DNA of 64,000 bases from a virus. The position numbers and the translations under genes were made by a program. How positions within the stretch are numbered: the stretch's first letter is position 1; the number at the start of each line of letters is the position of its first letter. Under the pieces are notes generated by a model that had not been told where the DNA came from, searched no databases, and saw only the letters and a list, made by a program, of their open reading frames with translations. The stretch covers positions 1-64,000 of the IMG/VR virus record IMGVR_UViG_3300002026_000029. One strand, 5' to 3'. Shown in pieces: positions 8,931 to 27,838 of the stretch.

Positions 8931-9362
8931 ATGGGTGAAATTGAAAATAATGCAGGACAAGCATCAAGCTCTTCATGGTTTGATTCATGGTTTGGTGATA
9001 GTGATAAGCTAGGTGCAAATGGACTTACACAGACTACTACTGACTATAGTAAGTCTATTCTCGCTTTACAAGAGAAACACCCTGGAGCTAGTCAAACTGA
9101 GCTGGCAGCAATGCTAGAAGCATCTAAACCAAAGGACACCTTCCTGGGTATGGGTAAAGGTACGCTGGAAGGAGTAACTGGTTTCGCTTCAACTTTAGCC
9201 ACAGGGTTCGATATATATGATAAACTATGGGGCGATACGGCTAGTCTAAATAAGCAACGTAAAGATATATACAACCAACAAATTGCCTCTAATAATGCTG
9301 CTGCAAAGGCAAAGGCAAACTTTGTGACTAACATTAATGCATCTGGCTTGGGTAAGTTATAG
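8931..9362 (+). CDS. Small internal virion/ejection protein
   Basis: 143 aa, Gly/Ala/Ser-rich and Cys-free, with a Q/N/A coiled-coil tail, in the ejection-protein block. Confidence 0.5.
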   Translation: MGEIENNAGQASSSSWFDSWFGDSDKLGANGLTQTTTDYSKSILALQEKHPGASQTELAAMLEASKPKDTFLGMGKGTLEGVTGFASTLATGFDIYDKLWGDTASLNKQRKDIYNQQIASNNAAAKAKANFVTNINASGLGKL

Positions 9363-9404: not shown

Positions 9405-11417
9405 ATGGCAAGATTTACAGAAGACTTTTCATTTAATGGTGGAACTATTGGGCCTAGTATGACTGATATCATTAGTAAAGGTATTGGTGGTATATTAGAA
9501 AGACGTGCCGCACAGATTGGTGAGGATGAGAGAAGAGCTCACGTAGAAGCGTTAGCTCGCGGAGAATTGGCCTATGCACATGAAAGAGACGCTAATGGCG
9601 ATGTGTTAGCTGCTAAGGCTGTTCAATATAAAGCAGAGCAAGATGCACTTAATAGACAAGAAGACGCTAACGCTTTGGCTCTTGCAGCTAAAACAAACAA
9701 GGCTACTAACGAAGCAATACTTGCGGCTACTAACCCTGAGGAATACAAAAAAATAGTCATTGATGCACAGAAAGAGTCTGTTGATCTAGGTAGGGCATCA
9801 CTTGCTGCAGATGTTGAGAGTGCAAGTAGAGATGTAGTCGAGCTAGATAAGAATGTTGCTCTGACTCAGGCATCACTTGATGAAGCTGTTAATATTGGAG
9901 CCAATCTAAATAAGGTTGCTCTAGCTAAGGCAACACTGGCTGAAGAGGTTAAGAGTGCAGGTATAGCTGCCACCAAGCTAAAGGATGCTAATACGACACT
10001 GAATGACTTTAATACAGCAGTGAAGGATAAGAAGATCTATAACCCTAAAGTGGAATCTGTCGAGTGGTTACAAAAGGCTTTAAATGACCCACTAGCAGAC
10101 CATAATAAGGTTGCGACTATTAAGAATAATCTAGTAACACAAGAGCTTAATCAAGATGAGTATGATTTAAAGGTACAGATAGCTAATACACCTGATGCTG
10201 TGCCTAAGGATGTGTTTGTACATATTGATAGTGGTATTCCAATATTTGTAGATAGAGGCGAAAAGGTTCCTCCTGGTTTTGTCACACAAGCGGTCTTTAC
10301 TGTTAAACATAAGAACGATAATAATAATGCTTCTGGTGATAAAAGTAAGTCAATAATTAATACAGATGGTTCTATTAATAAGGCAAACCTAGTTTCTTCT
10401 AATCCAGCATATGTTAAGACTATTAAGGAGTATTCTTCTACATTTGTAAAAACAAACGAAAGTGACTTACATAATACTTCAGACCTTGTATCAAAGTTGG
10501 ATAGACTCCAAATGCTAACTGGATCGAGCAGCGAGGCTATAATGGCTCTGTTAACGCAGGTCGGTGATAATGGATGGCTATTTGGTGTTGGTACTGGGAC
10601 TATTAACCAAGCAGCCTTGAAGAAAGCACTTGAAGGACAATATTCTGTTGTGCGTCATGGTAATGAGATTGTAAAGATAGAGTCATACAAAGCCTACCAG
10701 AATTTAGATACTAAGGATAAATCTGGACAACCATTTTACAACGTTGAGGCTATTGGTGACACACGTAGGTTAGTTCAAAATCCTAATTACAAAGGTGAAA
10801 ACACTCAACCTGTGAATATGACCGAACTACAAGAAAGTATTGCTAACGAGGCTGATACTACGTATGGAAAATATTCACTGGACGCAAAGAGTATTGTTAA
10901 TATTGGTAATAAGGAAGGCCTACGTCCAGATATTTATCTGGATACTAATGGGAATCTTACTGGTGGTATTGGACATAAACTAAATAAGTATGAAGCCAAC
11001 AAGTACCCAAAAGGTACAATTATTCCAATTGCAGAAATTCAAAAGTGGTTCAAAAAAGACATATCAATTGCAACTGAAGCCGCTTTAGAACAGAGTAAAA
11101 AACTAGGTATAAATCTAGAATCACCTATAGGTGCTGCATTGATTGGGGTGAATTTTCAATTAGGTCAAAATTGGAACTCATCAAAGGCAGGAACAAGTGG
11201 GCATGTTAAGACATGGCTCGCGTTACAGAATAAAGACTATAACACTGCTGTTAAGGAGTTAAAGTCTTCTGCTTGGTATAGACAAACACCTGACCGAGTT
11301 GCTGACTTAATCCAAGCAATTAAACTACAGAAAATTTCTGATGCTAGAGATGCACAGCGCAAACTAGCCAAAAGCCAAGGCACCAATCATATTCGTGACG
11401 CCCTACTATTTATGTAA
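9405..11417 (+). CDS. Internal virion protein with C-terminal T4-lysozyme-like (GH24) muramidase
   Basis: 670 aa. Ala-rich coiled coil, then KEGLRPDIYLDTNGNLTGGIGH (E-x8-D-x5-T) and FQLG...KSSAWYRQTPDRV. Confidence 0.8.
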   Translation: MARFTEDFSFNGGTIGPSMTDIISKGIGGILERRAAQIGEDERRAHVEALARGELAYAHERDANGDVLAAKAVQYKAEQDALNRQEDANALALAAKTNKATNEAILAATNPEEYKKIVIDAQKESVDLGRASLAADVESASRDVVELDKNVALTQASLDEAVNIGANLNKVALAKATLAEEVKSAGIAATKLKDANTTLNDFNTAVKDKKIYNPKVESVEWLQKALNDPLADHNKVATIKNNLVTQELNQDEYDLKVQIANTPDAVPKDVFVHIDSGIPIFVDRGEKVPPGFVTQAVFTVKHKNDNNNASGDKSKSIINTDGSINKANLVSSNPAYVKTIKEYSSTFVKTNESDLHNTSDLVSKLDRLQMLTGSSSEAIMALLTQVGDNGWLFGVGTGTINQAALKKALEGQYSVVRHGNEIVKIESYKAYQNLDTKDKSGQPFYNVEAIGDTRRLVQNPNYKGENTQPVNMTELQESIANEADTTYGKYSLDAKSIVNIGNKEGLRPDIYLDTNGNLTGGIGHKLNKYEANKYPKGTIIPIAEIQKWFKKDISIATEAALEQSKKLGINLESPIGAALIGVNFQLGQNWNSSKAGTSGHVKTWLALQNKDYNTAVKELKSSAWYRQTPDRVADLIQAIKLQKISDARDAQRKLAKSQGTNHIRDALLFM

Positions 11418-11456: not shown

Positions 11457-14400
11457 ATGGCTTATATACCAGCACCTAGTATTATTCCAACACTAGAAAC
11501 ACTAAAGACCTACACACCAGGTCTTGGTGTTGTCCCCACTAAACAAGACATCAAAGCTAACGCAGTAGCTGCTGCTTATGAAGAGAAGCTATCAGACCTA
11601 TCCCAATACTCAGTTGCAAAAATAGTTATTGGCGAAGATGCTGATACACTTATTATTAATAATGATGTTAAGTCTACTCGTATTAGAGGTATAGACGCTA
11701 TGGAAGTCGACCATGGTGATAAGTGGTTGAGTCAGCCTAGTAATCGTCGTCACGTTGATCAACAAAAGATTGTACTCGCAGGTATACTAGGTAAACCTGT
11801 TAGTCTAATCACAGATCAAGATGTATTTGATTACGGTAAACAACAACGGGATAATGTAGCCACTGCATTAGGTGGTACACCTACTAGCCAACTACCTATT
11901 CTGGCACTAGTAGAACAGACAATGAATGCTGATCTATCAGCTTCTGAACAGAAGAATTTGTATGGTAGAACCTTAGGCACTGTACGTCCATTGATTGGCC
12001 CTTATACTAATAATGCTGGTGTAGAGGTACTACCTAGTAATCAAGTCTGGGGTTCATCACATCAGTACTCTAAGGCGAGTCCTTACGACTATGATGTTAT
12101 GACTACTCCTGGTGAATCTAAAATACTAGCTGGTTACTCAGACCCTAATTTAACGGATACCTCTATGGCTTACAATGAAGGGCGTAAGGGTAGTATATCT
12201 AATCTAGTAGACGGACTGCAGTATGGTGTAAGTAGAACAGCTGGTGGTATAGTTGATGCCATAGTTGATGCTGGTATTAGATTAGGTAAAGAAACAGCTA
12301 AAAGTATTAAAGGCATCACAGAGGATGAAGCAAATGAAATCCTTAATAGTAAACTTAAAAATACTATGTTTGCTAATGCTATTGATGTTAGAGGAAACTT
12401 TATAGGAGCTGATATTCTTAAGAAAGCTGAGACTTATGGCTTTGATGATAGTGTAGTTAAAAACGAGATGAATAACTTGGCCGCTGCTTGGAATACTGGG
12501 ACTGTTGCTGATAAAGCAGCTGCACTTCTTAGTGTAGCATGGAATGCTGGTCCTGAATTAGTAGTGTCTAGTGCTGGAGAGTTTCTAATTGGTCCTCTTG
12601 GAAAGCTTGGTCTAGTACTTAATACAGCAAACTACTCTAATCAGATATTAGAAGATGTTAAAGGCGAAGTAACTAACGAACGACGCTTTGTAGCTATGAT
12701 TGGTGGTACTGCAATGGCATTAATAAACAAAGCTGCTGTCGATGAAGCCTTTGGTAATACACAGCTAGTAAAATCTGCATTAGGGTCAGTGTTTAAAACA
12801 GAGTCTAAGACAGCTGCTGTAGCTGCTCTGCGAGGCCTTGCACGTATTGGTGTTATGGCAGGTGGTAAAGCTACTTATGAAGGTCTAGAAGAGGTTGTAC
12901 AAGAATCTATTAGTAAATTTATATCGAAGTATGGTACTGAAGCACAACATGAACTGACAGATGGCACATTAGGTACTGAACTATTCCAAGCGTTTGGTGG
13001 AGGGTTTGGAGCAGGTGCTGCGATTAGTGTTGGTAAGGATATACTACCTGGAATGCCATCACTTAGTCGTGCACAGAAAGATAAAGAAGGAGTTGTACCA
13101 ACATTTGTTGAGACTGCAGTAGCCGCTAATCCTAATGTACCAAAGGGTGATATTGAGACTGCATATAAGGCTATGCAAGAGGGCACCATATTACATGATG
13201 GTAACGTAGCTGTCGATGAGGGTAGTCCTACTGTTACTAGAGATGCCTACGTAGCAGTGTTGAATGCAACTACTGGTGATGAGACATCAACTATAGCTAA
13301 TTCAGGCACTGTTAATCCAACAACTGGTGCTGTTGAGACAGATGCTGAGATACAGAATATTAGTAGTGCATTTGATGCTGCATATAAAGAAGTGGTAGCC
13401 AATATTACATTAGCTAAGACCGCCCTAACACCAGCTAATATAGGTAATTTTACAGAAAATATTCATGAGTATATATTTGAATTACAAGATATTAAAGATG
13501 CAATGGTTGTATATGCTGCTAAAACTGGTATACCAATTACGGAGAAGATTAAAGCTATTGACGCTAAGATAGAACGCTTAATACCTGTGGCAAAGATGAA
13601 TACAGTAGATGAGTTGTCTGGTATTTTACAGGATACTACGCTTACAGTTCCATCAAAGATAGCTACTATTCTAGGAAGTTCAAATGTAACTCCTGTTCAG
13701 GTTAGTGAAGCTATTAAGTTAGCTAGTGAGCATAATACCTCTGATGCAGCTGATAAAGTAGATGATCTTGATATGACCTTGTTGTATTTACAAAAGACTG
13801 CTATGGACGCAGGTAACACTGGTGATAGAGTTAAGCGCGAGAAGTTACTAGGAGGTGGTAGTAAAGCATCTCTTGCATCATATGTAGAATTAGTACGTAA
13901 AGGTAGTAAAGATGCCCTAAAGTATATAAATACATTTGTTGGTAGTCAACGAGCTAAACTAGAAGCGTACAATACTGCTATTGCACAATGGGAAGCTGAT
14001 AATAATATTGACTCAAGTTTATCGACTGATAAGAAGGCTGAGTTAATCAGCAAATTACCAGCGGAGGTAAAAAGTAATATATCTATAAAATATGGGACTA
14101 CTACGTATAATGAGAAACGTGATGCTAAAAATGCAATCCTAAGTGCACTTGATCTTAGAGATACCATAGCGAAAGAGCAGAATCTACTAGAGCAATTATT
14201 AAACTTATCTAATAGTAAATTTGCTTCATCACCAAAGACTGCTGAAAAGAGACAGAAGAAAACTGATGGTAAGGTTAGCCACTTTCCAGTAGCTGGTCCT
14301 GAAATTACCAGTGAGGAAATAGACTTGGCTGAGATGGAGGCTGCACAGCCTACTATTACTGAGTATACTAAGCCTAATGAGCAAGAAGCTGAATCAACTG

Positions 14401-14906
14401 ATAATGCTATGGATGGAAGTGATGAACTTGTTACTAAACAGAAAGCATCATCAGAGTCCACTACAGAGCCTGTAGCTGCTAAAGTAGTTTCAGATGATGA
14501 AGTTGTTGCAGAGAATGGTAAAGAGATTGTAGAGGCTGCAAAGCAGGCTGATTACGAGAAGTTAGCTGACGAGCATGCTATGGAAGATGTAGAGGAGACT
14601 ACTACAGAGGTTAAGCAAGATTTAGATGCAGAAGTAATTGTTAAAGAAGCTGCTGATACTACTGGTATTAAGAAGGCTGCATTCAGTAAGACTAAGAAGC
14701 CAACTACTTATGAGTATAACACTACGGCAGCTAGTATCAATATTGCCAATGAGCTTAGAAACCCTATAGGATCAGCCGATAGTGTTTCACTTGATACTAC
14801 TGAGGTTGGAAATCCATCTAAAAATGATATAATTTCAGCTACAAAGTCACTACAGACTGTGGCTCCGATTATTGCAGCTAAAATAACTAGAGCGTGTAAT
14901 ACTTAG
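11457..14906 (+). CDS. Large ejection protein, equivalent to the N-terminal part of N4-type vRNAP, with N-terminal SNase-like domain
   Basis: 1149 aa. GEDADTL...RIRGIDAMEV...LYGRTLG resembles thermonuclease motifs. EGLEEVVQE and GGGFGAG segments are typical of ejection proteins. Single Cys at position -3. Confidence 0.6.
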   Translation: MAYIPAPSIIPTLETLKTYTPGLGVVPTKQDIKANAVAAAYEEKLSDLSQYSVAKIVIGEDADTLIINNDVKSTRIRGIDAMEVDHGDKWLSQPSNRRHVDQQKIVLAGILGKPVSLITDQDVFDYGKQQRDNVATALGGTPTSQLPILALVEQTMNADLSASEQKNLYGRTLGTVRPLIGPYTNNAGVEVLPSNQVWGSSHQYSKASPYDYDVMTTPGESKILAGYSDPNLTDTSMAYNEGRKGSISNLVDGLQYGVSRTAGGIVDAIVDAGIRLGKETAKSIKGITEDEANEILNSKLKNTMFANAIDVRGNFIGADILKKAETYGFDDSVVKNEMNNLAAAWNTGTVADKAAALLSVAWNAGPELVVSSAGEFLIGPLGKLGLVLNTANYSNQILEDVKGEVTNERRFVAMIGGTAMALINKAAVDEAFGNTQLVKSALGSVFKTESKTAAVAALRGLARIGVMAGGKATYEGLEEVVQESISKFISKYGTEAQHELTDGTLGTELFQAFGGGFGAGAAISVGKDILPGMPSLSRAQKDKEGVVPTFVETAVAANPNVPKGDIETAYKAMQEGTILHDGNVAVDEGSPTVTRDAYVAVLNATTGDETSTIANSGTVNPTTGAVETDAEIQNISSAFDAAYKEVVANITLAKTALTPANIGNFTENIHEYIFELQDIKDAMVVYAAKTGIPITEKIKAIDAKIERLIPVAKMNTVDELSGILQDTTLTVPSKIATILGSSNVTPVQVSEAIKLASEHNTSDAADKVDDLDMTLLYLQKTAMDAGNTGDRVKREKLLGGGSKASLASYVELVRKGSKDALKYINTFVGSQRAKLEAYNTAIAQWEADNNIDSSLSTDKKAELISKLPAEVKSNISIKYGTTTYNEKRDAKNAILSALDLRDTIAKEQNLLEQLLNLSNSKFASSPKTAEKRQKKTDGKVSHFPVAGPEITSEEIDLAEMEAAQPTITEYTKPNEQEAESTDNAMDGSDELVTKQKASSESTTEPVAAKVVSDDEVVAENGKEIVEAAKQADYEKLADEHAMEDVEETTTEVKQDLDAEVIVKEAADTTGIKKAAFSKTKKPTTYEYNTTAASINIANELRNPIGSADSVSLDTTEVGNPSKNDIISATKSLQTVAPIIAAKITRACNT

Positions 14907-14926
14907 TGTAATATTAAAGGATTAAA

Positions 14927-17900
14927 ATGTCATGTGAACTAACAGAAACAATAAGAGATATAACTAGACTTAAGAAGGCAGAAGGTAACAGTGCTAATAA
15001 GGCTAATACACTCAAGTCACTGGAGAACTTACGTGATACACTCCTGGCCGCTAAGTATGCAGAGACTACGAAGAATGCTACTATAGATATTAAACTTCCG
15101 GTCAAGGAAGCTGTAGACAAGATGCTAGAAGAAGATGTAATCTATAATGAGCTTGTTCAGAACTATAAAGATAGTAAGGTAGCTGTTACAGAGGCCTTTA
15201 GTAAGTTCAATAGTAATAAAACTATGTCTAAAGATAGCACAGTAAAAGGTAGTAGTAAAAAAGCTGGTGATAAAAAAGATGGTACTAATACGCTAAATAA
15301 GTCTGAGAAGGCTCTTGTCACACTGAATGAATACATTACTACAGTACAGGAAAAGTTAGAGTATACAGCAACTGCAGCGGATAAAGCTTCTAGCAAAGCA
15401 GCTAGAGACTACTGGAGTGATAGTAACGATATAATAGCTGCTGAGATGAGTGAACTACAAAATACAGTTAAATCCTTAAAGGCCTTAATAAAGTATTCTA
15501 AGAGTAATATCACACGTGGAAATACATTGTTTGAGGCTGCTCAAAAAGCTATAGAAGTAAGTATAGCAGCTAAAGAAGCCATTACTGAGTATAGAAATGT
15601 GTTTACAACTGGTGGTAATATTCTTCTATGGGTTAAGAATAATAGTCGTAAGACTAAGCATGCTACGGATGTTGATGCTATTACAATTGCTGATTACTTC
15701 ACAGCTAAAAGTACATCTATAGATTTACTAAATGTAGGCAAGAGAATTAAGACGGCATTGTCAATTACTACAGGAGATAGATCTACTAAGAATCATAATA
15801 TAGCTAAGGCTAGGGATATGATTAAAGTAGTATTAGCTGGTGTTCTTAAATTTACTAAGTCAATAGATGTAGGAACATCAAAGTTACATATAGGTGACTA
15901 TATCTCAACTGATGCTAAAGTAAAGGGATTCCAAAATGTTGGTAGGCTACTGTACACACTGGTACCATATAATCCAGAAACTAAACTACCTGACCATAAT
16001 GTTGTTAATCAAGAGGTAGCTAAAGCTATAGCAATATGTTCCTTAGATTGGGCAGCTAACATAGGTGGTAGGAATAGAGCATTCAATAGATCTGATGATG
16101 ATGCAAAAAGAATGCTAAATAAAAATACTAATGATGTGCTATCAGCAGAAGAGCGTGATATTATTAATAGGTTTGATGGGTTACAGGACTCTAGTGCAAT
16201 AATACTTGGTAAGATGATATTTGATATGTTAGGTTTAAAAACAAAGCCTTCAACAGATGGTATAAATAATGAAAGAATTGAGGCTAAACTACAACTGGAG
16301 CTAGGACTAATAGCACTTAAGTCATTAGAGTATTCTGGTATATTAAAGCTCCACACCTCAAAAGATAGATTGCCTAAACAAGATATGGATGATGTTGTAA
16401 TAGAGGCATTAGCTAATAAAGAATTCGTTGAAGGGTATGCAACTCCATATGAGTCACTGTATGGTGAATCAACTACAGGTAAGAATAATTTAGTATCTAC
16501 ATTTAGCTTTACAGCACCAAATGGTGCCTCATTATACGAGAGATTTGATAAAGATGCTACTAATGGTAATCAAATAGTAACTGGTGGTACAGAGACTGCT
16601 ATAGTAGACCTTTATGATGTACTCGGTTATACACCACAGTTAACTGGACCATACTTTACAGAAGGTACAAATAAGACTAATAGAGATGATATTGTTAATC
16701 AAGGCATCAGTCGTAAAGTAGGAGAGACTCCAGAAGTACAAAAGGATGCTATTGAGAATTCGGAAGATACTCCAAGAACATTTGATGAAAACTTTCTTGA
16801 GTTAATTGATGTAATAATTGACGAGATATCTATTGATGGGTTATATAGAGAGTTAGGATGGAAGGATGTTGATACTGCGTATATTGATGATAGAACAGCT
16901 GTAAGAGGTAAGAACTTAGCCATAGAAAGATCTATGAAGTATTTGCAAGAGACTCGTAAGACTCTAAATGAGCTTGGTAAGTCTAAGATGTGGTTTAAAT
17001 GGTATGTTGTGACTAATGGACGATTTGGTATTAAGTCTAATACATTTAATGTACAAGATCAAAAGCTCCATAGAAACTCAGTAAATACTGAAATGATTGC
17101 TGTTACTAAGGGCTCTGTAGAAGAAGATTTACTAATACTTGCTATGGCACAAGGGTTTCATATTTCAGTAGATAAGCAAACATTTGTGCAGTCTAAGAAG
17201 GAGTTCGTTAAGTTATCAAAAGAGATAGATAAGATACTTGGAGCTAGTGTTGAGGACTTCACTTCAGAAGCTGTTACTAAGGCGTTCCGGTTTGTAAACT
17301 CTAAAACATCTGAGCCTGAGCATGCACTACGAGCTCTATCAGAGTATATCCAGTATAGAGCTTGGAATGAGAATGGAGCTACAGAACCGTTAATAACTGG
17401 TATTACATTAGAGACGGATGCTGTTACATCTGGGTATATTTTAAAGTTATTACAGATGCCTATTTTCAAGACAGATGGCATACTTAATATGGAGAAAGTA
17501 ATAGCTCATTTAGCTAAGGGTGGTGTTTTTAAGCATGAAGTAGATGCTGATGGTAATACGATAAATCAGTCTTATGAAGAATGGAAGATGGAGCCTACAA
17601 ATAAGGACTCATATGAGACTGTAGCCAGTGCATTTGGTAAGCAGTTGCATGAGGCAACACAATCTGAGAACCTATCGTATAGAATTGGTAAACCAAATGT
17701 TAAGTTTACAAGCTTATCTACTAAAGAGAAAGATAATCTTAATAAAATAGCTATAGAAGAGCAAATTAAAGTTGTAGCAATTATGGCTGTATTAGGCGAA
17801 ACAAAAGTAAAAGATTCAATTATACAAATATCAAGATCCTTCATGAAGAACCCTTTCATGGTATTTAACTACGGTTCAGCTATTAACTCAATAGTTAAGT

Positions 17901-20900
17901 CACTGTCAAATACTGCAGTTGAGAACCTTAATGGCCTTATGACTAAAGCGGCTAATAGAGATTACCCGTCTAAAGCATCTGATGGTGGTGAAGTTACTAC
18001 TACTGAAGCAAAGAACAAGGCTATAGCTGAGGCTGATGCAGCAATGACTATATTAGTTGATGCAATATTAGCATCAGCATTTGGACGAAATAATGATACG
18101 CGAGCTGCCTCTACTGAGCGTACAATACAGTTTGTCAAACAGTTGGATGCTGCATATAAAGAAGATCCAATGTCATTACTGGAGTTTAAGATACCAAAAG
18201 ACATTCGTAAGCTAGTATTTGAAGCGACTCAACGTACTATTAAGGAGCCATTAACAGCTACATTTAAGTCTGAGTATGGAGAGTTTCTAGAGGCTGGTAA
18301 GACAATTAACTCTGCTATGGTTATGTTGATGAGAGCAGCTACACCTAAGATAGAGGCTGCCATTGATGCACAGATTAATAATATTCATACACAGGCTATA
18401 AAAGATGGCACAGTATCACCTAAGTCAAAACCTAGACCTCTAACTAATCGTGAGATAGATGAGATAATATTAGACTTAAGGGACACACTACCAGTGCTGA
18501 ACATGCCATTAGGTGATGGTGATAAAAGTAAGATACTACTAGCTGCTGAAGATGCAGGGGAGTATAATATTAATACAGTATTGAATGTTGATACTACATC
18601 TGGTTTTACGTTTGAAGATACGCCTGCACTACGAGGAACTAGTAGGTTGTACAAGTTGGTTGAGAAATACACTAGTGGAGCCGTAATTCCAATTCACTTT
18701 ATGGATGGATCTATTCAATCACGTGTATTGAGTGTGTTTAAAGCACTAGGAGTACATGATGCTAACTTATTCACATTGAAGGATGCAGTACCAGGTACTA
18801 AGGCCTATAACAAAGCTGTTATAGAATTGGCTAAATCTTACTCTCTTACTACTGAAGTATTGAATAGTGTGACTACATCACTGAATACATTGAGTACACC
18901 TGAGTTAGAGGCTCTGGACGATAATTACTTAAATGAGTTTGTTAAGAAAAAAATTACGAGTATTGTACATGCAGTTGCTAAAACTAATGCTGTTAATAGT
19001 ACTAAGTTGCGTACTATTTTAGTAGATAGTATCCCTAAAATAATTATGACAATTAAAAATCAAGCTCCATTAATGCCAATTGTTACTGCTAATGAGGAGT
19101 TATATAGAGAGGCTGTAGCCGACGTATTACTACAAGTAGTGTATGAACTTCAAAGTGCACCTACTGTAAATGATATGTTTATAGCTGTTGTTGAGTTACA
19201 AAAAAGTAGTGAGGAAGGACGTGATGCATTATTTAATGGAGATGCACTCTATGTAGAACATGCTGCCTTAGAAGGCGCTGCTTATGTAGCAGAAAAGACA
19301 ACATATACTAAACAGATTCCCATTGACAAATCTCCTACTCTAGCTTCATACCTAGGTACTTTTAAGGGGATTGTTTCAGAATGGTATTTAGCACATAGTG
19401 CTGATGAGCTTGGACGAACTATAAGTACTGTGGTTACACCACTGAAGCCAGCTGTAAAAACTAACACTACACAGGGTAGTATAAACATATACTCAACAGA
19501 TAAGAATGGGTATGAAGGTTTAAGTAATTTAGTCGCTGGTCCAGTTGAGAGACTTGGTATAGTATATAAAACAGTTGAAGCTGCTTTCCAAGCAACTAAG
19601 GCTAAGTATCTCGGTGATGTAGCTGCTGCTGCTAGAATTATTGATGCTAGTACAGGTGCACAAGCTAAACAACTAGGTGATCCAAGCGGAATTATAAAGG
19701 TAGGTAGTAATACAAAGACGTTAAAAGATTGGGACAACGTGGCAACAAAAACAATGAAACTTATACTGAGTCATTACTATAATAATGATAATAAAGCTGC
19801 AGAATTATTGTTGTCAACAGGTAATTCTACCCTTACACATACACAAGATAAAGGTAAATGGGCTACCATATTTCCACAATTACTTATGGAGATTCGTAGT
19901 GAGTTACAAAACGATACTACCAAAAACAAACCTGTAGTAGACTACGTAGCTAAAGTAAGAGAAGTAAATAAAGGAACTACTGCTGACAAACATACAGAAA
20001 AAGAAGTGGCTAAGGCTAGTATGGCAAACAAGTACATAGGGTTTGGGAGTGCTAACAGCTCTACACATAGGTATGCAGGAGTATATGGAAATAACGCTAA
20101 TAGGACAGACTATGTAGCTAATGATATTGTATGGGTATCAAGTAATGGAAGAAGAACTGGCAGGGTTAATCCGGTTCAATCTGGTAAACTAGTTAATGGG
20201 TATCAGATTCTTGATAATGCTATAGAAGCAGGTGCAACAATTGTAATGGATACTGAAGCACATTTAGCTAATAGTAGTACATACAACATAGGTGAGACGG
20301 CTTTAGCTGATTATATGGTTACTAAAGGGTATAGTAGGGTAACAGAGAATAAGGCTGGAGTATGGAGACCTAATAAAGATGCAGAATTATTGTTGTCAAC
20401 AGGTAATGCTACAATTACACATACAAATGAGACTCCTATTCCTACAAGTAAGTACAGCGTACCTGAGAACATAACAGAGTTAAAGCCTAACGAGGTATTC
20501 GTATTTGGGTCTAACCAGCAAGGTCGCCACGGTAAGGGTGCCGCACTTACCGCTAAGCAGAAGTTTGGAGCTGAGCAAGGTAAAGGTGAGGGAGAGTTTG
20601 GTAATACGTATGCATTACCAACTAAATCTACACCAGATGTGACATTAACTATAGAGGAAGTTACTACAGGTGTAAACAAGTTTCTTGCACATGCTGCTAA
20701 GAATCTTGATAAGATGTACTTAGTTACTGCGATAGGTACTGGGTTAGCTGGTATGATGGCCGAGGATATTGCACCACTGTTTAAAGAGGCTGGTGACAAT
20801 GTTAAGCTTCCTAAGGCCTGGGAAAATATTTCAATGGCTACTCCTACTGCAGGTACTCCTAATGACATAGCACCAATCCCATTCAAATTGAAGATAGCTG

Positions 20901-23392
20901 GTGATGAGATTAATCTAATGAGCGTAATAGGATTTCAAGACGGTAGATTGGCACAAGCAGATGCTAATGATATAATCTATATAAAGAAAGGGCTAACTGT
21001 AGAAGAAGTCCTTGAGTATCTTACAGGCGGAGACAGTAAGACTGCCATACAAAAGAAAGTAATTACAGAATATATGAAGGTACAAGGTATTGATCTAATA
21101 GCTACTATAGAGCGTATGACAGATGCCCAAGTGAAGAAGTTCATAGCAGCACATGAATATGTACATATACTGCAAAAAAGAGCTAATGGTGGTAACCTAA
21201 AAGATGCCTACTATGCTGATAATAAGCAAACACTGGCTGGAGATATGGCCGATACAGCTAATAGATTCTTGAGCGATAGTGCTATAAAGTTTGAAGCAGA
21301 CGCTAATACCAGAGGACTAGAGCTTATAGGAATAGTTCCTATAAGAATAGAAGATGATATATCTCCATTGGATGTAGATAAGATGGCAGTAACGGACATA
21401 ATTACTAATGAGTTACAGGGATCAACGCTTTATGCTGATGTAGTTAAAATCCTTGAGAGTGTAGTGGTCAATAAAATTAAATATGGCTTACGTACAATGC
21501 ATTCTGATAGTAAGTATGGAAATCCATTTGTCACTGAGAAAGCTTATGAAATCAACAGTAAAGGGTATACCTACATAGGTGGAAACGAACAAGTGAGTGT
21601 TGCTTACTATAATTGGCTTAAGGATAATACTCTACCTGCACAGGCTGAGAAGTATAGACCACTCCTTGATAAAGCAAGAGTTGAAATTCTTAACAATTTA
21701 GAAGCCGTGCGTTCCGCCGCTAAGGAAGGAGGTATAGGATTCCACTACACTGGTACAGCCAAAACTGGAGTTAGTCACGTTAGTGCATTGATAGCTATAG
21801 CTAATGATGGTAAGGTAGATACTGATGGTAATGGGGTATTGGTGCAAGTACAAAAAGACTCTAATCCTACAATAGTGCCTGGTGAGACTACTACACCTGC
21901 TAAATCTACTAAAAAAAGTGGAGATACTAAGTACGAGTTATTCCCTGGTGTTTATGCTAACGAAGGGCAAGTAGCTGCGATAGATGTATTAACTGACTTT
22001 TTAAAGGGTAATGAGACAGAGTATGTGTTAAAAGGCAGAGGTGGTACTGGTAAGACAACTATTGTTAATAAGGTATTAGAGAATGTAGGGTTATTATACT
22101 CTGAGGTATACTTTACCACTATCACTCATAAAGCTAAGCAGGTAATAGAAGCGGCTAATAAGAATAGCAGGTATGCTAAAAGTCCATATGCTGTTACCCA
22201 GTCAAGCTTATTCAAGTTTGGCAAACCATTAAAGAATAAGATACAGATAGAGTCACCTAAGGTAATTGTAGTTGATGAGGCGTCTATGGTTAACGAAAAG
22301 ATTATTCAAGATATCCTAGATACTGCTAAAGACATTAATGCTAAGGTACTATTTATGGGTGACAATGTACAGTTACAGCCTGTTACAGGTAGTATCCCTG
22401 GAGCTAGTAGCCCTATATTTGATAGTGAACTACATCCTAATGTGGTAGAACTAGAGGAGCGTATGCGTCAAGGAGAAGAGTCCCCAATACTACCTATTAC
22501 AGATATGCTTGCTAACTTTGTGGAGGGTAATGGTGATGTATCATTTGATGGTGTGTCTCACGTTACTCCTAAAGGCACTGTTGAGTACATGGAATCTGGA
22601 GATGTAACAACATCAGAGTTTGTTAAAGACTTTAAGAAGGCTCCTAGAGAGACTAGATATATATGGTACAACAATGATTTACACAAAAATACTACTAAAT
22701 TAGTTGAGCAGATTAGAGTAGGGTTGTATGGTAAGCGCGCTGAAATGAAATATGTTAAAGGTGAGCAGATAATACTAGGTGGTAACTATGGTAATAAAGG
22801 TAAGGGGGAATTCACCGCTTTTAATAGTGAAGAATTCACAGTTAGTAATGTAACTACTGCACATAGTGCGACTGTAAAGTATACTGAGTATATTAACGGG
22901 AAGTCTTTTAATAACCAGTATACATATAATAAGCCTGTGTATCATGTAGAGGCAACTAGTAACTCAAGCGGTAAGACTATTGTACTAGTATCTCCTCAGG
23001 AATCATTCGCTACAGCGACACAAGGCTTATCCAATACTATTAAAGAAGAGTTTGCACAGATTGCATATGCGTATGTAATTAGCTCACACAAAGCTCAAGG
23101 TAGTACATATAAGACTGTGTATACGGATGTAGCTAATATCTTAAGAGCCCCTGGGCAGAATTCTATTGATCAAGTTAAGAGTTTATACGTAGCTACATCT
23201 AGACCTACTGATAAGTTAGTACTAGTTAATGCTGGGGAGTTTATTACTAAAGAGTATGTATCAGCCATTGATACAGTACAGGATTCAGCTATAATAACAC
23301 CAATTAAAAATAAGACAGTGTTAGATGGTTACTCCAAGCAGGCTTCTGAGGCTGTTAATAAGATACTAGATAGTACATGTAAAGGAAATTAA
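14927..23392 (+). CDS. Virion-encapsidated single-subunit RNA polymerase (N4 vRNAP-like) fused to cargo domains and a C-terminal Dda/RecD-like SF1B helicase
   Basis: 2821 aa. Motif A LETDAVTSG (~17411), motif B RSFMKNPFMVFNYG (~17834), motif C GVHDA (~18750). Helicase Walker A GRGGTGKT (~22034), VVDEAS, MGDNVQLQP, HKAQGSTY, LYVATSR. Confidence 0.85.
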   Translation: MSCELTETIRDITRLKKAEGNSANKANTLKSLENLRDTLLAAKYAETTKNATIDIKLPVKEAVDKMLEEDVIYNELVQNYKDSKVAVTEAFSKFNSNKTMSKDSTVKGSSKKAGDKKDGTNTLNKSEKALVTLNEYITTVQEKLEYTATAADKASSKAARDYWSDSNDIIAAEMSELQNTVKSLKALIKYSKSNITRGNTLFEAAQKAIEVSIAAKEAITEYRNVFTTGGNILLWVKNNSRKTKHATDVDAITIADYFTAKSTSIDLLNVGKRIKTALSITTGDRSTKNHNIAKARDMIKVVLAGVLKFTKSIDVGTSKLHIGDYISTDAKVKGFQNVGRLLYTLVPYNPETKLPDHNVVNQEVAKAIAICSLDWAANIGGRNRAFNRSDDDAKRMLNKNTNDVLSAEERDIINRFDGLQDSSAIILGKMIFDMLGLKTKPSTDGINNERIEAKLQLELGLIALKSLEYSGILKLHTSKDRLPKQDMDDVVIEALANKEFVEGYATPYESLYGESTTGKNNLVSTFSFTAPNGASLYERFDKDATNGNQIVTGGTETAIVDLYDVLGYTPQLTGPYFTEGTNKTNRDDIVNQGISRKVGETPEVQKDAIENSEDTPRTFDENFLELIDVIIDEISIDGLYRELGWKDVDTAYIDDRTAVRGKNLAIERSMKYLQETRKTLNELGKSKMWFKWYVVTNGRFGIKSNTFNVQDQKLHRNSVNTEMIAVTKGSVEEDLLILAMAQGFHISVDKQTFVQSKKEFVKLSKEIDKILGASVEDFTSEAVTKAFRFVNSKTSEPEHALRALSEYIQYRAWNENGATEPLITGITLETDAVTSGYILKLLQMPIFKTDGILNMEKVIAHLAKGGVFKHEVDADGNTINQSYEEWKMEPTNKDSYETVASAFGKQLHEATQSENLSYRIGKPNVKFTSLSTKEKDNLNKIAIEEQIKVVAIMAVLGETKVKDSIIQISRSFMKNPFMVFNYGSAINSIVKSLSNTAVENLNGLMTKAANRDYPSKASDGGEVTTTEAKNKAIAEADAAMTILVDAILASAFGRNNDTRAASTERTIQFVKQLDAAYKEDPMSLLEFKIPKDIRKLVFEATQRTIKEPLTATFKSEYGEFLEAGKTINSAMVMLMRAATPKIEAAIDAQINNIHTQAIKDGTVSPKSKPRPLTNREIDEIILDLRDTLPVLNMPLGDGDKSKILLAAEDAGEYNINTVLNVDTTSGFTFEDTPALRGTSRLYKLVEKYTSGAVIPIHFMDGSIQSRVLSVFKALGVHDANLFTLKDAVPGTKAYNKAVIELAKSYSLTTEVLNSVTTSLNTLSTPELEALDDNYLNEFVKKKITSIVHAVAKTNAVNSTKLRTILVDSIPKIIMTIKNQAPLMPIVTANEELYREAVADVLLQVVYELQSAPTVNDMFIAVVELQKSSEEGRDALFNGDALYVEHAALEGAAYVAEKTTYTKQIPIDKSPTLASYLGTFKGIVSEWYLAHSADELGRTISTVVTPLKPAVKTNTTQGSINIYSTDKNGYEGLSNLVAGPVERLGIVYKTVEAAFQATKAKYLGDVAAAARIIDASTGAQAKQLGDPSGIIKVGSNTKTLKDWDNVATKTMKLILSHYYNNDNKAAELLLSTGNSTLTHTQDKGKWATIFPQLLMEIRSELQNDTTKNKPVVDYVAKVREVNKGTTADKHTEKEVAKASMANKYIGFGSANSSTHRYAGVYGNNANRTDYVANDIVWVSSNGRRTGRVNPVQSGKLVNGYQILDNAIEAGATIVMDTEAHLANSSTYNIGETALADYMVTKGYSRVTENKAGVWRPNKDAELLLSTGNATITHTNETPIPTSKYSVPENITELKPNEVFVFGSNQQGRHGKGAALTAKQKFGAEQGKGEGEFGNTYALPTKSTPDVTLTIEEVTTGVNKFLAHAAKNLDKMYLVTAIGTGLAGMMAEDIAPLFKEAGDNVKLPKAWENISMATPTAGTPNDIAPIPFKLKIAGDEINLMSVIGFQDGRLAQADANDIIYIKKGLTVEEVLEYLTGGDSKTAIQKKVITEYMKVQGIDLIATIERMTDAQVKKFIAAHEYVHILQKRANGGNLKDAYYADNKQTLAGDMADTANRFLSDSAIKFEADANTRGLELIGIVPIRIEDDISPLDVDKMAVTDIITNELQGSTLYADVVKILESVVVNKIKYGLRTMHSDSKYGNPFVTEKAYEINSKGYTYIGGNEQVSVAYYNWLKDNTLPAQAEKYRPLLDKARVEILNNLEAVRSAAKEGGIGFHYTGTAKTGVSHVSALIAIANDGKVDTDGNGVLVQVQKDSNPTIVPGETTTPAKSTKKSGDTKYELFPGVYANEGQVAAIDVLTDFLKGNETEYVLKGRGGTGKTTIVNKVLENVGLLYSEVYFTTITHKAKQVIEAANKNSRYAKSPYAVTQSSLFKFGKPLKNKIQIESPKVIVVDEASMVNEKIIQDILDTAKDINAKVLFMGDNVQLQPVTGSIPGASSPIFDSELHPNVVELEERMRQGEESPILPITDMLANFVEGNGDVSFDGVSHVTPKGTVEYMESGDVTTSEFVKDFKKAPRETRYIWYNNDLHKNTTKLVEQIRVGLYGKRAEMKYVKGEQIILGGNYGNKGKGEFTAFNSEEFTVSNVTTAHSATVKYTEYINGKSFNNQYTYNKPVYHVEATSNSSGKTIVLVSPQESFATATQGLSNTIKEEFAQIAYAYVISSHKAQGSTYKTVYTDVANILRAPGQNSIDQVKSLYVATSRPTDKLVLVNAGEFITKEYVSAIDTVQDSAIITPIKNKTVLDGYSKQASEAVNKILDSTCKGN
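19789..19843 (+). repeat. 55-bp direct repeat copy 1 within the vRNAP gene
   Basis: 51/55 identical to 20371-20425; encodes NKAAELLLSTGNSTLTHT. Confidence 0.9.
20371..20425 (+). repeat. 55-bp direct repeat copy 2 within the vRNAP gene
   Basis: Encodes NKDAELLLSTGNATITHT. Confidence 0.9.
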
Positions 23393-26300
23393 TGAGCTGT
23401 GATCTAAAACAAACTACTATAACCAACTTAACTAAGGTGTTTATGCGAGATTTACGAGGTAGTGGATTAAGTCATGATGAACTAAAGGCTAAAGCATCTA
23501 GTGATGCTGTCGCTATAGTAGAGGCTCGCTATGCTAATGAGGTAGAAGAATTTGCTGCTGAGGCTGATGCTAGAGCAGCACTTCCTGGAGGTGTTGTTTT
23601 AGAGCTTAATGCAGAAAAGCCTACTGTTTACAGTCCTAGATCTAAATCACAAGTAAGACTTACAGTCACAGAAGTTAATAATAATAAAGTGTACGGGACT
23701 ATTGGTAAAGGTACTACTGTGTTTAGTTATACACCAGGGTTACTAACGTTAAATCAGAAAGACGCACAGACAATTATTAACAAGTATACTGTAACACCTA
23801 TAGCATCTGAGGCTATTAGTAGTAATGCTACTGATATTACTCCAGCGTCACCTAGTAAGCAATCAACTGTGGCTGTTAGTAAAGAAGTACAGCTGTTAAA
23901 TGAGCAGTATCTTGCAAACCCAACTTCAGAGAATAAGACTAAGCTAATGAATGCAGAGATAGCACATGGGTACCGTAATACTAAAGGTGAGCTATTAGTC
24001 AAGTTTACTGCTCAGAAAGAACTAATTAAAAGTGCTGATATAACTACTGAAGTTACCGATGAAGGTTTTAATGAGCTATATGTTGATACTGATGGAACTA
24101 TTAGTAAGAGTGCTAATTTAAACAAAGCCTTTATAGCTGCTGATAAGATTAATATGGGTGAAAATTTCGATGAAAGTCATAGTGAGGATTTGACTGCTTT
24201 ATTAGCTAATATAGAAGCACTTGTATATGAGATCAATGATAAAGAAGTTAAGTTAAAACCTATAACACTTAAAGATGCTACTGATCCTACAGGTAATACA
24301 GGAGCTGCTGGTTCATGGAACCCTAATACAGATGTTATTGAATTGTATACGGATACTCATGGAGCTGGTGCAGACTTTAGAAACAACTTCTCAATGACAA
24401 ACCAAGAGGTTTATGCTCATGAGATGATTCATGCTGTAATGGATTTTATCTTTAATAAAGATAACGCTAAAGTTGGTAAATCAACTACTATTACTTCACT
24501 TAAAAGTAGCCTTGAGTCACTGTTTGCGAAAGCATCTAAAGAGAGTACATGGAAGACACTACTACCTGGCATTGATGATAATGTAGTATACACAGAGCAA
24601 CAGAAGTTACAAGCTCAAGTTAAATGGCAGTATATATTCCGTAATCCACATGGGTATGGACTACATGAGTTTATGGCTAGTATAATGACCAACTCTATGT
24701 TTAGAGAAGGTATGAAATCTATTGGTAGTTTATCAACAGTTATTGATACTGAAGATAATTTAGCAGATCAGATTAGAGCGTGGTTTAATAAAATATTTGA
24801 GAAACTATTTGGGTATATGACTAATAAGAGAGATAATACAATCACTAAAGAAGGCACTAGACTTATAATTGATCTAATGAGAGCTAATTACAATGCAGTT
24901 GAAAGAGTTAGTATGGTGCAGGTTATCAAGTCAGTTGATAATGTGTACGATTTAGCTGTTAATAAGATGGATGTGGCTAATGAGAGTTTTAAGAAGCTTA
25001 CTGACCCATTTGTAAGAGTTATTGATTCTCTTGAAGATACAATTAATGGCAAGGCTAGTAAACACTTAAGTTTAGACATGTTAAAGGAGTTTACACTTCT
25101 AAGAGATGAGCTTGTCACAAAATTAACTAAGATTAATACTAGACCAGATAACTCAGGTTCTAGCTTTGTTAATGGGTTTAGACAGGTAATTAAAATGATC
25201 TATAAGCTAGGTGTATTTATTACTGCTATGCCTGCGTTGTTTAAGATGCGAAAGCTAGTTAAAGGCTCTAAGTATGATAAGAATGTTGGTAAGTATTTTA
25301 CTAAGATAATCAATGACTTTTTAACTGCTATTGGATTAGCTGAAGAAAATGGCTTTAGAGTTATGTTACGTGACTTTATTGATAGACCAGGACTATATAA
25401 CTTCTTAGCAGATTCATTGTTGAGACTAACCCATGCTGTTGATGTAGTAAGAGAGACTACATTTACGGCTGTAAAGGGTGAGTTACTAGGTGGTTATGAG
25501 GGAATTCATATGGATAATGATTTGCTCAATCTACGTAACAATGAGGCCCATCTAGACGTTATTCTACGAACAGACCTACAAGTACTAGGGTTAGATGCTG
25601 AAGGGCTCCTAGAGCTCCTACGTAACCCTGATGAGGTAAAGGCTAAGATAGCTGAGTTATCAGTAGGGTTGCATAAGCAAGTTATTAAGGGTGCTAAACA
25701 GTTGGCTAAGGGGATGGTTACTGGAGTTGGTGTTACAAGTAATGCTGAGAATGTTGCTAGAAGCTTTGGATTTGAATACCAGACCGCAGTAGATCCAGAT
25801 ATTATTATGCAGACAGATAAGCTAATAACATATTTGGCTTTGGATATTACAGCTGTAGAATCAAAGGCACAGATGGTATCGTTCTTAGATGGTTCAGAGT
25901 ATAAGAATTATTCAAATACTATTTGGCGTAAGATTGCTAAGAAGAATGGTATTAAAGCACGCAGTGCTCTTACACAGGAGCAATATACTGAAGTAGTGAC
26001 TAATGGTATGAACTTATTTCTTATGCGTGCTATAGGCCTTAATGCGGCTTCTAAAGAGGAAATGGCTGCTACTCCACATTTACGTATCAAGGGATATGTA
26101 AAAGATGTGTACAGAACTAAAGATACAATTGAAATGTTACCTATGTCTAAGATAAAAGAGCATGAGGCTAACGGGTATGTATTATTAACAAAGATGCCTA
26201 ATGTAGTTATTACAACTGATGAATATGGTATGTTTGTGAATAAGATGCCTGCAATTAAGAGAGCTAATGGAACACTAGGGTTACAGGACAGTAAGGCTAG

Positions 26301-27816
26301 AGGTTTAACGTTGAGAGATTTAATCCATAGAGAGTCTAACGATGCAGATATAATGTGGGATGATACTAAGAAAAGACGTACATTTGAAAGTATTTTACCA
26401 CAGATGGTAGCTCAGTATCATAAAAATCCAGAGTCAACGCCAATGTCACCAATGTATGATGCTAATGGTAGAATTGTAGACTTTAGATATAACATGAGTA
26501 TTGCTGATAAGAAGAAATACTTAGACCTAGATACACGTGGTATTGATAACATGGCTAGATCATATAGTACTATGGGCACTGCAAAGACTACAGCGGCACA
26601 TAACCATGAAGTAGTTGATCTTCTAGTAGATGATTACTTAAATAATTATACTGGAAATGAAGAGTCATACGTAGTTATTAAGCCATTAACTCTTACTGCC
26701 CTTGATTATGAGTTAGAAACTTATTCTACAGAAGCTATGACAGAGGCTGAAAAGTATAGCCACTATTGGGCTAGATTACCAAAGGATACAAAGGAGTATG
26801 CAACTAAGAAGTTTGCTGGTAAGCAGTTAATACTACGTAAAGAGTTTTTGACCATAGCTTTTGGTGATGATGATTTTAGTATTACACAATTAAAGATGTT
26901 TAATAAGACTAAGCCAAAGACTAAGATACTAATTCGTCAGATTGAGAGTGGTTGGCAAGATTTAATGCAGATTGCTAAAAGTAACATTGTTATTAAGACA
27001 CCTGCTGTTTTCACTGGTAATATATGGTCAAACTTAAAGATATTAGTTTACGTAGGTGTTCATCCAATTAAAGGTGCTGAACTAATGTTATTGGCTTCAA
27101 AAGAGTTAAAGAGATATGAGACTGATAATGCTGAGTTGGGTAAGTTAAAGAGAGATCGTCTTAGTGGTATAAAAGATTTAGATGTTAGAATTACTGAGAT
27201 AGAAGCTAAGATGAAAGAGAATTTAGTTTACCCTTTAATTACAGCAGGATTGTATCAGTCGATAGTAGAAGATGTTACTACTAGTACTAAGTTGAATACT
27301 GTTGGGCAATACTTTGATGATAAGCTTAATAAGTATGTGACTAATGACACTGCTAACTCAGTGATACAAATGCTATTCATGACTCAGAAGACTAAGCCTT
27401 ATCAACAAATGTTAAAGCTGACACAAGTATCAGACTTCTACTTTAGATTTGCTCAGTACTATGATGCAATTGATAATAAAGGCCATAGCCCTGAGAGAGC
27501 ACTACGAGATGCTATTGATAACTATATTAACTATGAAGTTCCATTAGAGAAACATGTAAGATATATGGATACTATTGGTTCATGGTTCTTTATAAAATAC
27601 TTTGTTAAAGTACAGCGAGTTATAAAGAAGTTTGCCACTCAACACCCACTTAAGATGGCTACTGACTTAATGTTACAGCAATTCGCATGGGGTGATACTG
27701 AGGGAGTTGAGAATAGTTTCTGGGCAACTAAGATATGGAGTAAGATTCTACCATTTAATCAGTACAGTAACCTTAAACAAGTTATTGTGCCATCTGGAGC
27801 TGATTTAGTTCTATAA
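23392..27816 (+). CDS. Large ejection protein equivalent to the C-terminal part of N4-type vRNAP, with zincin HExxH domain
   Basis: 1474 aa. YAHEMIHA...LHEFMA zincin motif. C-terminal VYPLITAGLYQSI, TQVSDFYFRF and NYINYE...YMDTIGSWFF resemble the N4 vRNAP C-terminal domain. TAATG overlap with the previous gene; single Cys at position 3. Confidence 0.7.
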   Translation: MSCDLKQTTITNLTKVFMRDLRGSGLSHDELKAKASSDAVAIVEARYANEVEEFAAEADARAALPGGVVLELNAEKPTVYSPRSKSQVRLTVTEVNNNKVYGTIGKGTTVFSYTPGLLTLNQKDAQTIINKYTVTPIASEAISSNATDITPASPSKQSTVAVSKEVQLLNEQYLANPTSENKTKLMNAEIAHGYRNTKGELLVKFTAQKELIKSADITTEVTDEGFNELYVDTDGTISKSANLNKAFIAADKINMGENFDESHSEDLTALLANIEALVYEINDKEVKLKPITLKDATDPTGNTGAAGSWNPNTDVIELYTDTHGAGADFRNNFSMTNQEVYAHEMIHAVMDFIFNKDNAKVGKSTTITSLKSSLESLFAKASKESTWKTLLPGIDDNVVYTEQQKLQAQVKWQYIFRNPHGYGLHEFMASIMTNSMFREGMKSIGSLSTVIDTEDNLADQIRAWFNKIFEKLFGYMTNKRDNTITKEGTRLIIDLMRANYNAVERVSMVQVIKSVDNVYDLAVNKMDVANESFKKLTDPFVRVIDSLEDTINGKASKHLSLDMLKEFTLLRDELVTKLTKINTRPDNSGSSFVNGFRQVIKMIYKLGVFITAMPALFKMRKLVKGSKYDKNVGKYFTKIINDFLTAIGLAEENGFRVMLRDFIDRPGLYNFLADSLLRLTHAVDVVRETTFTAVKGELLGGYEGIHMDNDLLNLRNNEAHLDVILRTDLQVLGLDAEGLLELLRNPDEVKAKIAELSVGLHKQVIKGAKQLAKGMVTGVGVTSNAENVARSFGFEYQTAVDPDIIMQTDKLITYLALDITAVESKAQMVSFLDGSEYKNYSNTIWRKIAKKNGIKARSALTQEQYTEVVTNGMNLFLMRAIGLNAASKEEMAATPHLRIKGYVKDVYRTKDTIEMLPMSKIKEHEANGYVLLTKMPNVVITTDEYGMFVNKMPAIKRANGTLGLQDSKARGLTLRDLIHRESNDADIMWDDTKKRRTFESILPQMVAQYHKNPESTPMSPMYDANGRIVDFRYNMSIADKKKYLDLDTRGIDNMARSYSTMGTAKTTAAHNHEVVDLLVDDYLNNYTGNEESYVVIKPLTLTALDYELETYSTEAMTEAEKYSHYWARLPKDTKEYATKKFAGKQLILRKEFLTIAFGDDDFSITQLKMFNKTKPKTKILIRQIESGWQDLMQIAKSNIVIKTPAVFTGNIWSNLKILVYVGVHPIKGAELMLLASKELKRYETDNAELGKLKRDRLSGIKDLDVRITEIEAKMKENLVYPLITAGLYQSIVEDVTTSTKLNTVGQYFDDKLNKYVTNDTANSVIQMLFMTQKTKPYQQMLKLTQVSDFYFRFAQYYDAIDNKGHSPERALRDAIDNYINYEVPLEKHVRYMDTIGSWFFIKYFVKVQRVIKKFATQHPLKMATDLMLQQFAWGDTEGVENSFWATKIWSKILPFNQYSNLKQVIVPSGADLVL

Positions 27817-27830
27817 GAGTAGAAATACTC
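27817..27830. terminator. Short hairpin at the convergence of the two genome arms
   Basis: GAGTA-GAAA-TACTC between convergent stops at 27816 and 27839. Confidence 0.35.
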
Positions 27831-27838
27831 ATGTAGAA

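Follow-up and report, generated by a model that had tools for sequence, protein, structure and literature searches.

The virion RNA polymerase (vRNAP) of phage N4, gp50, is a giant protein that is ejected into the host. It consists of three globular units connected by flexible linkers at residues 907-1007 and 2102-2123, is loosely folded in the capsid like beads on a string and exits through a tail of ~35 Å; 4 ± 1 copies are packaged and, after ejection, a linker keeps the polymerase tethered to the membrane (PMC13434306). Encapsidation requires its C-terminal domain (CTD; as cited in PMC3821669), and the C1 subdomain of this CTD carries an HExxH motif (PMC13434306). A published survey showed that cysteine (Cys) is purged across the ejection operon of the Schitoviridae (PMC11445570), and our counts for N4 gp50 (3500 amino acids, aa), gp51 and gp52 gave zero Cys in all three. 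We analyzed a stretch of 64,000 nucleotides (nt), referred to below as the window, which corresponds to positions 1-64,000 (one strand) of the IMG/VR virus record IMGVR_UViG_3300002026_000029. In this window the vRNAP is encoded as three open reading frames (ORFs) in the + strand, here named A (1149 aa), B (2821 aa) and C (1474 aa), and we argue that the three pieces are most likely tied end to end in the particle by disulfides that would restore the continuity of the split polymerase.

Split or disulfide-linked virion proteins have been described in other phages. The Alteromonas phages vB_AmaP_AD45-P1 to P4, cultured and with genomes of ~100 kb, have a vRNAP whose split was confirmed by resequencing; the authors took Cys as a sign of non-injection, and its terminal position was not remarked on (PMC3821669). 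In AD45-P1 the upstream protein ends in ..HCKQ* and the downstream one begins with MTIC.., each Cys being the sole one of its protein. The RefSeq record NC_021532.1 presents this vRNAP (90623-102305) only as a misc_feature, 'potential frameshift', with no coding sequence, which is an annotation gap. The second precedent is the virion of cyanophage A4, in which cryo-electron microscopy showed a disulfide between Cys1715 of gp27 and Cys5 of gp26; gp27 docks there into gp26 through its C-terminal helix (PMC12002296). In the record of Anabaena phage A-4L these proteins (1717 and 1114 aa) are encoded by consecutive genes, and those Cys are the sole ones in each. In the same record the only two Cys of the ejection protein gp28 (25321-28497, 1058 aa) are residues 1036 and 1039, near its C-end, and gp29 has none. 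Inter-subunit disulfides have also been seen in virions of the crAss-like phage crAss001 (PMC10172136).

The A, B and C ORFs occupy three different reading frames. A gap of 20 nt lies between A and B, B and C overlap at the sequence TAATG, and a ribosome binding site (RBS) of the AAGGA type lies 5-8 nt upstream of each start. The ORF list and the inspection of starts thus agree with a preliminary description of this DNA, which had reported three vRNAP genes of these sizes, each with its own RBS and not in frame. A profile made from A homologues matched the first ~430-640 residues of fused vRNAPs and of AB-type ones, i.e., those combining the N-terminal domain (NTD) with the RNA polymerase (RNAP); the polymerase core was located in B, and residues 674-1435 of C matched positions 2609-3366 of the phrog_2206 profile (see Table 1). 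From the positions of these matches, A, B and C are collinear with the NTD, polymerase and CTD of N4 gp50. The A|B and B|C breaks fall at or near the two variable inter-domain regions that hold the flexible linkers in gp50, NTD|RNAP and RNAP|CTD. The N4 CTD has 1377 aa, and typical separate CTD pieces have 1200-1450.

The three proteins together contain five Cys in 5,444 residues (0.09%); the minus-strand (non-virion) genes of the window average 1.13%. Four of the five sit 3-4 residues from the facing termini. Both the count and the positions matched exactly those of the preliminary description, which had placed four Cys at the A|B and B|C junctions and one inside B (AICSL) and had also called the N4 vRNAP Cys-free, as our counts showed. 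In an alignment of eight B pieces, C3 and C2818 were the only invariant Cys columns.

The same arrangement was found in relatives. C homologues with 42-48% identity had exactly one Cys each, at residue 3 or 4; the exception, P0005, has its sole Cys at residue 10, and its called start looks ~7 residues too far upstream. Four viral contigs with 34-45% identity carry the same three genes with one, two and one Cys at the same places (A, 0-3 residues from the end; B, at residue 3 and 1-3 residues from the end; C, at residue 3-4), and the A-type homologues, six in all, had a sole Cys 0-3 residues from the end. In AB-type fusions (P0011, P0016 and Alteromonas phage AD45-P1) Cys was present only near the C-end, in the RNAP+CTD (BC) fusion P0159 only at residue 3, and the fully fused P0017 had zero Cys, as did N4 gp50.

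A census of sixty further viral contigs rendered 37 junctions with both sides readable, distributed in 27 loci with two-piece, three-piece and helicase-inserted layouts, and Cys was present on both sides of every one of the 37. The tail Cys is followed by 0-6 residues, mostly one, often as ..CK*. Both TGT and TGC are used at the junctions and the paired codons are 10-41 nt apart (199 nt at one junction), indicating selection on the protein and not on a nucleotide motif. The number of Cys in these loci always equaled the number of facing termini. The free outer ends, i.e., the N-terminus of the first piece and the C-terminus of the last, never carried Cys, either in the 27 loci or in five crAss-like phages (see below), and in two-piece phages the two facing Cys were the only ones in about 3,900 residues. 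Moreover, the terminal Cys were invariant at protein identities of 18-45%. Since it recurs in every true split relative examined, the terminal-Cys pattern goes far beyond chance. Three IMG/VR contigs considered as splits without Cys (L043, L050 and L056) were rejected, as their genes are of the fused type and are interrupted within domains by frameshifts: in L050 and L056 the frames overlap and the break is midway through the polymerase domain, and in L043 a third-frame ORF spans the break. These interruptions are probably assembly errors, which can be mistaken for splits.

A CTD profile search against 1.84 billion representative proteins (50% identity clusters) gave 2,140 matches with E<1e-3, and the best 150 of them were analyzed. 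In this sample, 106 of the 116 CTD-only pieces had Cys within the first seven residues (78 at residue 3 and 20 at residue 4), and in 101 of them this head Cys was the sole one; the 116 pieces total 113 Cys in 166,093 residues. The few CTD pieces without Cys appear to be N-terminally truncated or fragments within fused clades. Zero Cys were found in 24 of the 26 fused proteins of the sample, P0098 and P0108 being the other two. The CTD tree showed at least seven changes between the split and fused states on well-supported branches, and among phylogenetically independent pairs Cys went with the split in five and against it in none. One clean case of junction mapping was obtained: the segment LGTDVESI of the fused P0063 aligned to the head of P0074, MGCNIDSM, with Thr in place of Cys. 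The expectation set in the preliminary description, that terminal Cys would be conserved in split homologues and absent in fused ones, was therefore borne out by the junction census and by the nearly Cys-free fused proteins. P0018 (2071 aa, DarB-like antirestriction family, phrog_10089), which came up as a weak match, is related to DarB, a protein that P1-type phages package in the capsid and inject, and likewise had zero Cys in its 2,071 residues.

In four census loci (L030, L032, L034 and L039) the helicase that B carries here as a fused domain is a separate protein of 816-1010 aa, encoded between the RNAP and CTD pieces, with exactly two Cys, one at residue 4-5 and the other 3-6 residues from the end. 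A different middle piece of 776 aa, in L028, likewise has two terminal Cys. These layouts indicate that a module can join the array either by fusion or as a separate Cys-tipped link. The crAss-like cargo proteins, whose comparison the preliminary description had proposed, were also positive, with a 1-2-1 Cys pattern at facing ends. In phi14:2, gp67 has Cys only at its last residue, gp66 at residues 3 and 2179 of 2180, and gp65 at residue 3; the same facing-end rule was found in crAss001 (gp47-gp50-gp49), cr111_1, DAC17 and cr55_1, with one to three extra internal Cys in crAss001 gp50, cr111_1 gp033, DAC17 58 and 57, and both cr55_1 pieces. In crAss001 and DAC17 the strand that encodes the first piece is not the one that encodes its two partners, yet this piece keeps its C-terminal Cys, so that coupled junctions are excluded as the source of an artefact. 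The HExxH region of N4-like CTDs recurs in the last crAss piece, and the HExxH of C corresponds to the 'zincin-like protease' noted in crAss gp65.

Because split relatives keep the facing Cys and nearly all fused ones are Cys-free, end-to-end linkage by disulfides is the reading that we favor, and interchain A-B and B-C disulfides in the virion of this phage are, in our estimate, likely. Homology, gene position and the purge of Cys suggest that A, B and C would be packaged in the capsid and ejected into the host. In the mechanism that we propose, the pieces have been purged of Cys, like other proteins ejected through the tail in Schitoviridae, except for one placed 3-4 residues from each facing terminus; after assembly, each tail Cys would pair with the head Cys of the following piece, giving A-B and B-C bonds. 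With the links within a few residues of the chain ends the product would be almost linear, its overhangs being short, and therefore could pass the ~35 Å tail channel, and a Cys pair near the new chain ends is what would be expected if a disulfide replaces the linker. The reducing cytoplasm would then open the links, releasing the polymerase from both its neighbors, the N-terminal piece that anchors to the membrane and the C-terminal one. We infer that the bonds would form in this phage, serve co-packaging or ordered ejection, and be reduced on entry; it is plausible that the pieces would be threaded in order as one chain and that cytoplasmic reduction would release them. The joining of A, B and C head to tail by terminal Cys pairs, as put forward in the preliminary description, drew strong backing from the comparative evidence, to which the A4 precedent adds.

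Several observations weigh against this proposal. The cytoplasm, which is the site of assembly, is reducing. No member of the Erv1/ALR, thioredoxin or glutaredoxin families was found in the 90.8-kb record, a weak negative given that the record is ~77% complete and that the Erv1 control matched nowhere. The one demonstrated disulfide of this signature, that of A4, staples a structured pentameric pre-ejectosome and not a loose thread (PMC12002296), so the thread function may not carry over from it. The AD45-P1 proteins gave separate bands of 270 and 175 kDa in a gel whose conditions are not stated (PMC3821669). B holds one extra internal Cys (C371), as do a few relatives, and the fused vRNAPs P0098 (3546 aa) and P0108 (3339 aa) carry 5 and 12 internal Cys, respectively, showing that the purge is not absolute. 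The identity of heads and tails was 24-29%, no higher than in the rest of the proteins, and for this reason a docking surface cannot be defined from sequence. As to the fused proteins just mentioned, P0098 and P0108 form a clade with P0133, which has zero Cys. In the heads of CTD pieces only M1, the Cys (C3) and a hydrophobic residue at Cys+2 recur; the reusable docking module that had been read into the shared MSC[E/D]L start found no support beyond the Cys itself.

It could be that the disulfides form but only staple a structured pre-ejectosome or packaging complex, for stability and co-encapsidation, with no ordered thread or reductive release. This is how the bond appears in A4, where it belongs to an ordered pentameric ring that encircles the portal axis and is described as stabilizing the docked helix (PMC12002296), and the need of the N4 CTD for encapsidation implies that pieces without a CTD would need a tie to it (PMC3821669). 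However, the N4 vRNAP is unordered in the virion (PMC13434306), and the Cys are always 0-6 residues from the chain ends, a position that is needless for a staple and expected for a link that has to travel through a narrow channel. We regard an exclusively structural role as unlikely, the staple and thread roles being not mutually exclusive.

Linkage of A, B and C in order also supposes that facing Cys pair with each other. The terminal Cys could instead pair like with like (A-A, C-C or B polymers) or with another virion protein, or be used as a cysteine switch or for acylation; the partner is undecidable from sequence and several polymerase copies are packaged in N4 (PMC13434306). Against this stand the equality between Cys and facing termini, the outer ends devoid of Cys in the 27 loci and the five crAss-like phages, the two-piece phages whose only two Cys are the facing ones, and the heterotypic pair seen directly in A4, which together make any pairing other than head to tail very improbable. 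A cysteine switch acting on the HExxH domain was rejected, since heads of RNAP and helicase pieces, which have no HExxH, carry Cys as well.

The preliminary description had left room for a metal clasp, in which the facing Cys would be bridged by a shared metal ion, e.g., Cu(I) or Zn. Two thiolates from two chains can bridge a metal, and C has a conserved zinc-type HExxH motif; yet each terminus has just one Cys, beside which neither His, Asp or Glu nor another Cys is conserved, a pair of this kind is also present at A|B and RNAP|helicase, two junctions distant from HExxH domains, and the identical signature in A4 was modeled as a disulfide. The lone Cys of each terminus and the lack of conserved ligands around it make the clasp less likely than a disulfide, and we give it slightly less credence still than the alternative pairings. 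A split intein was also rejected: it would call for an N-intein of ~100 aa beginning with Cys at the end of the upstream piece and a C-intein of ~35 aa, with Cys, Ser or Thr after it, at the start of the downstream one, and Cys located 0-6 residues from the chain ends reverse that arrangement; no Hint/intein family was present in A, B or C. Finally, although tight coupling is common at the junctions (TAATG overlaps), often with TGT placed between RBS and stop, a by-product of nucleotide constraints at coupled junctions, a relic of the split event or mere chance can be set aside with near certainty, given the C-terminal Cys encoded by the opposite-strand first genes of crAss001 and DAC17, the codon spacing of 10-41 nt with both Cys codons in use, and the invariance of these Cys at 18-45% identity while other Cys were purged.

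The coordinates of the vRNAP pieces, their Cys, domains and the two upstream genes are listed in Table 1.

Table 1 Features of the split vRNAP locus and the genes preceding it (positions in the window)
Feature	Position	Strand	Evidence
Small gene, 143 aa, without Cys, placed as N4 gp52 (small ejection protein)	8931..9362	+	ORF list, Cys count, N4 order gp52-gp51-gp50
670-aa gene without Cys, placed as N4 gp51, with a lysozyme domain at the C-terminus	9405..11417	+	PF00959 residues 503-626, phrog_7
Piece A, counterpart of the vRNAP N-terminal domain, 1149 aa	11457..14906	+	Profile of A homologues
Tail Cys of A, C1147 (..TRACNT*), third from end, sole Cys of A	14895..14897	+	
Piece B, polymerase core and added domains, 2821 aa	14927..23392	+	Pfam/PHROG matches
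Head Cys of B, C3 (MSCEL)	14933..14935	+	Invariant across alignment of 8 B pieces
N4-type (T7-like, single-subunit) RNA polymerase domain, B residues 75-1461	15149..19309	+	phrog_2206 positions 802-1981 of 3406, E 4e-68; phrog_414
Internal Cys of B, C371 (AICSL), not conserved	16037..16039	+	Other B pieces have exactly two Cys
NADAR domain after the polymerase core, B residues 1532-1641	19520..19849	+	PF08719 E 1e-10; phrog_1017
Dda/PIF1-like SF1 helicase domain at the end of B, residues 2345-2775	21959..23251	+	phrog_325 E 5e-57; PF13604, PF13538
Tail Cys of B, C2818 (..STCKGN*), fourth from end	23378..23380	+	Invariant in alignment A6
Piece C, counterpart of the vRNAP C-terminal domain, 1474 aa	23392..27816	+	phrog_2206 profile match, E 2e-101
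Head Cys of C, C3 (MSCDL), sole Cys of C	23398..23400	+	Invariant in alignments A1, A3, A7
HExxH motif, C residues 343-347, in a zincin-like subdomain like C1 of the N4 CTD	24418..24432	+	Conservation in CTD pieces

Piece A had no Pfam or PHROG match. The extra domains of B span positions 19520-23251 (residues 1532-2775) and include, between NADAR and the helicase, an unnamed PHROG domain, phrog_2072, at residues 1846-1968. Relatives of B range from 1322 to 2354 aa, indicating that this added-domain region is variable. NADAR, the phrog_2072 domain and the helicase would enter the host along with the polymerase. C was 22-26% identical to Schitoviridae vRNAPs (tblastn), and its H343, E344 and H347 were invariant or nearly so in 58 diverged CTD pieces. 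The locus therefore has the polymerase core and the homologous, HExxH-bearing CTD of the N4-type vRNAPs, and departs from them in that a single ~3,500-aa polypeptide is replaced by three ORFs, a split kept in relatives, and in that the Cys-free condition is replaced by five Cys, four of them terminal. Of the two upstream genes, the 143-aa one may have a gp52-like role, as judged by its position and size.

The source virus is a distant N4-like phage. The whole record is a contig of 90,795 bp from an uncultured virus, with 37% G+C and about 77% complete. A megablast against deposited phage records showed no close DNA relative, and single-protein locus searches gave no matches. The genomes of this split-polymerase clade (relatives' contigs of 96-118 kb) and of the AD45 phages are ~90-118 kb long; classical N4-like genomes have ~70 kb.

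Parts of this picture are already published: the split vRNAP (AD45, 2013), the Cys purge of ejected proteins (N4, DEV) and one terminal disulfide (A4, 2025). In the searchable literature we did not find the rule of a facing Cys pair at every break and none in fusions, its extension to the helicase link and crAss-like phages, or the reading of the Cys pair as a replacement of the peptide linker. The problem that the rule addresses is the passage of several copies of a protein of at least 380 kDa through a podovirus tail of ~35 Å, as in N4 and the crAss-like phages. A Cys pair present wherever the protein is split, and only there, suggests that the ejected chain has to be covalently continuous, and that a reducible bond can stand in for a peptide linker. 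The rule predicts from sequence which giant phage proteins are co-packaged and co-injected, and in what order; it corrects annotations that call such splits frameshifts, and reverses the published argument that 'cysteine means not injected'. It also suggests a simple route to load foreign cargo into phage particles. More tentatively, terminal Cys pairs may be a general modular coupling device of short-tailed phages, shared by or repeatedly arisen in N4-like, crAss-like and A4-like phages, by which any injected protein (polymerase, helicase or other enzyme) could join a redox-cleavable thread by means of a Cys at each end facing a neighbor, with cytoplasmic reduction as the trigger that would detach the enzymes from the leading piece anchored in the membrane.

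Compared with N4 gp50 and gp71 of the Pseudomonas phage DEV, the locus described here has a homologous T7-like core and CTD in the same NTD-RNAP-CTD order, and ejected proteins purged of Cys; as in N4, a small gene and then one of ~650 aa lie upstream in the same order. The N4 and DEV polymerases are single chains of 3,400-3,500 aa with zero Cys, whereas here there are three chains with a Cys pair per break, and the middle piece adds NADAR and helicase domains. The gp27-gp26 pair of A4 bears the same signature as A|B and B|C, with the sole upstream Cys third from the end and the downstream one at residue 5, and our locus has Cys near both facing ends at each break (A C1147 of 1149 and B C3; B C2818 of 2821 and C C3). 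No significant match to A4 gp26-gp29 was obtained with profiles built from A, B, C and the 58 CTD pieces. The A4 system differs in that gp26 and gp27 contain no polymerase, in having one link and not a chain of two, and in its ordered pentameric ring, and its disulfide is treated as a local stabilizing bond and not as a rule tied to gene splitting (PMC12002296). The crAss-like block (phi14:2, crAss001) resembles this locus in its three giant virion proteins, of which the central one holds the polymerase, its 1-2-1 Cys pattern, its MAC/MSC heads and ..CK* tails, and the existence of both fused and split forms (10.1101/2020.03.07.982082), although its catalytic domain is a two-barrel RNAP and not T7-like, the middle pieces of some gut members (crAss001, cr111_1 and DAC17) carry one to three extra internal Cys and some members have the first gene on the opposite strand. 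The AD45 phages, with a break into two pieces (AB|C) instead of three, share with this locus a split N4-like vRNAP and the same junction signature.

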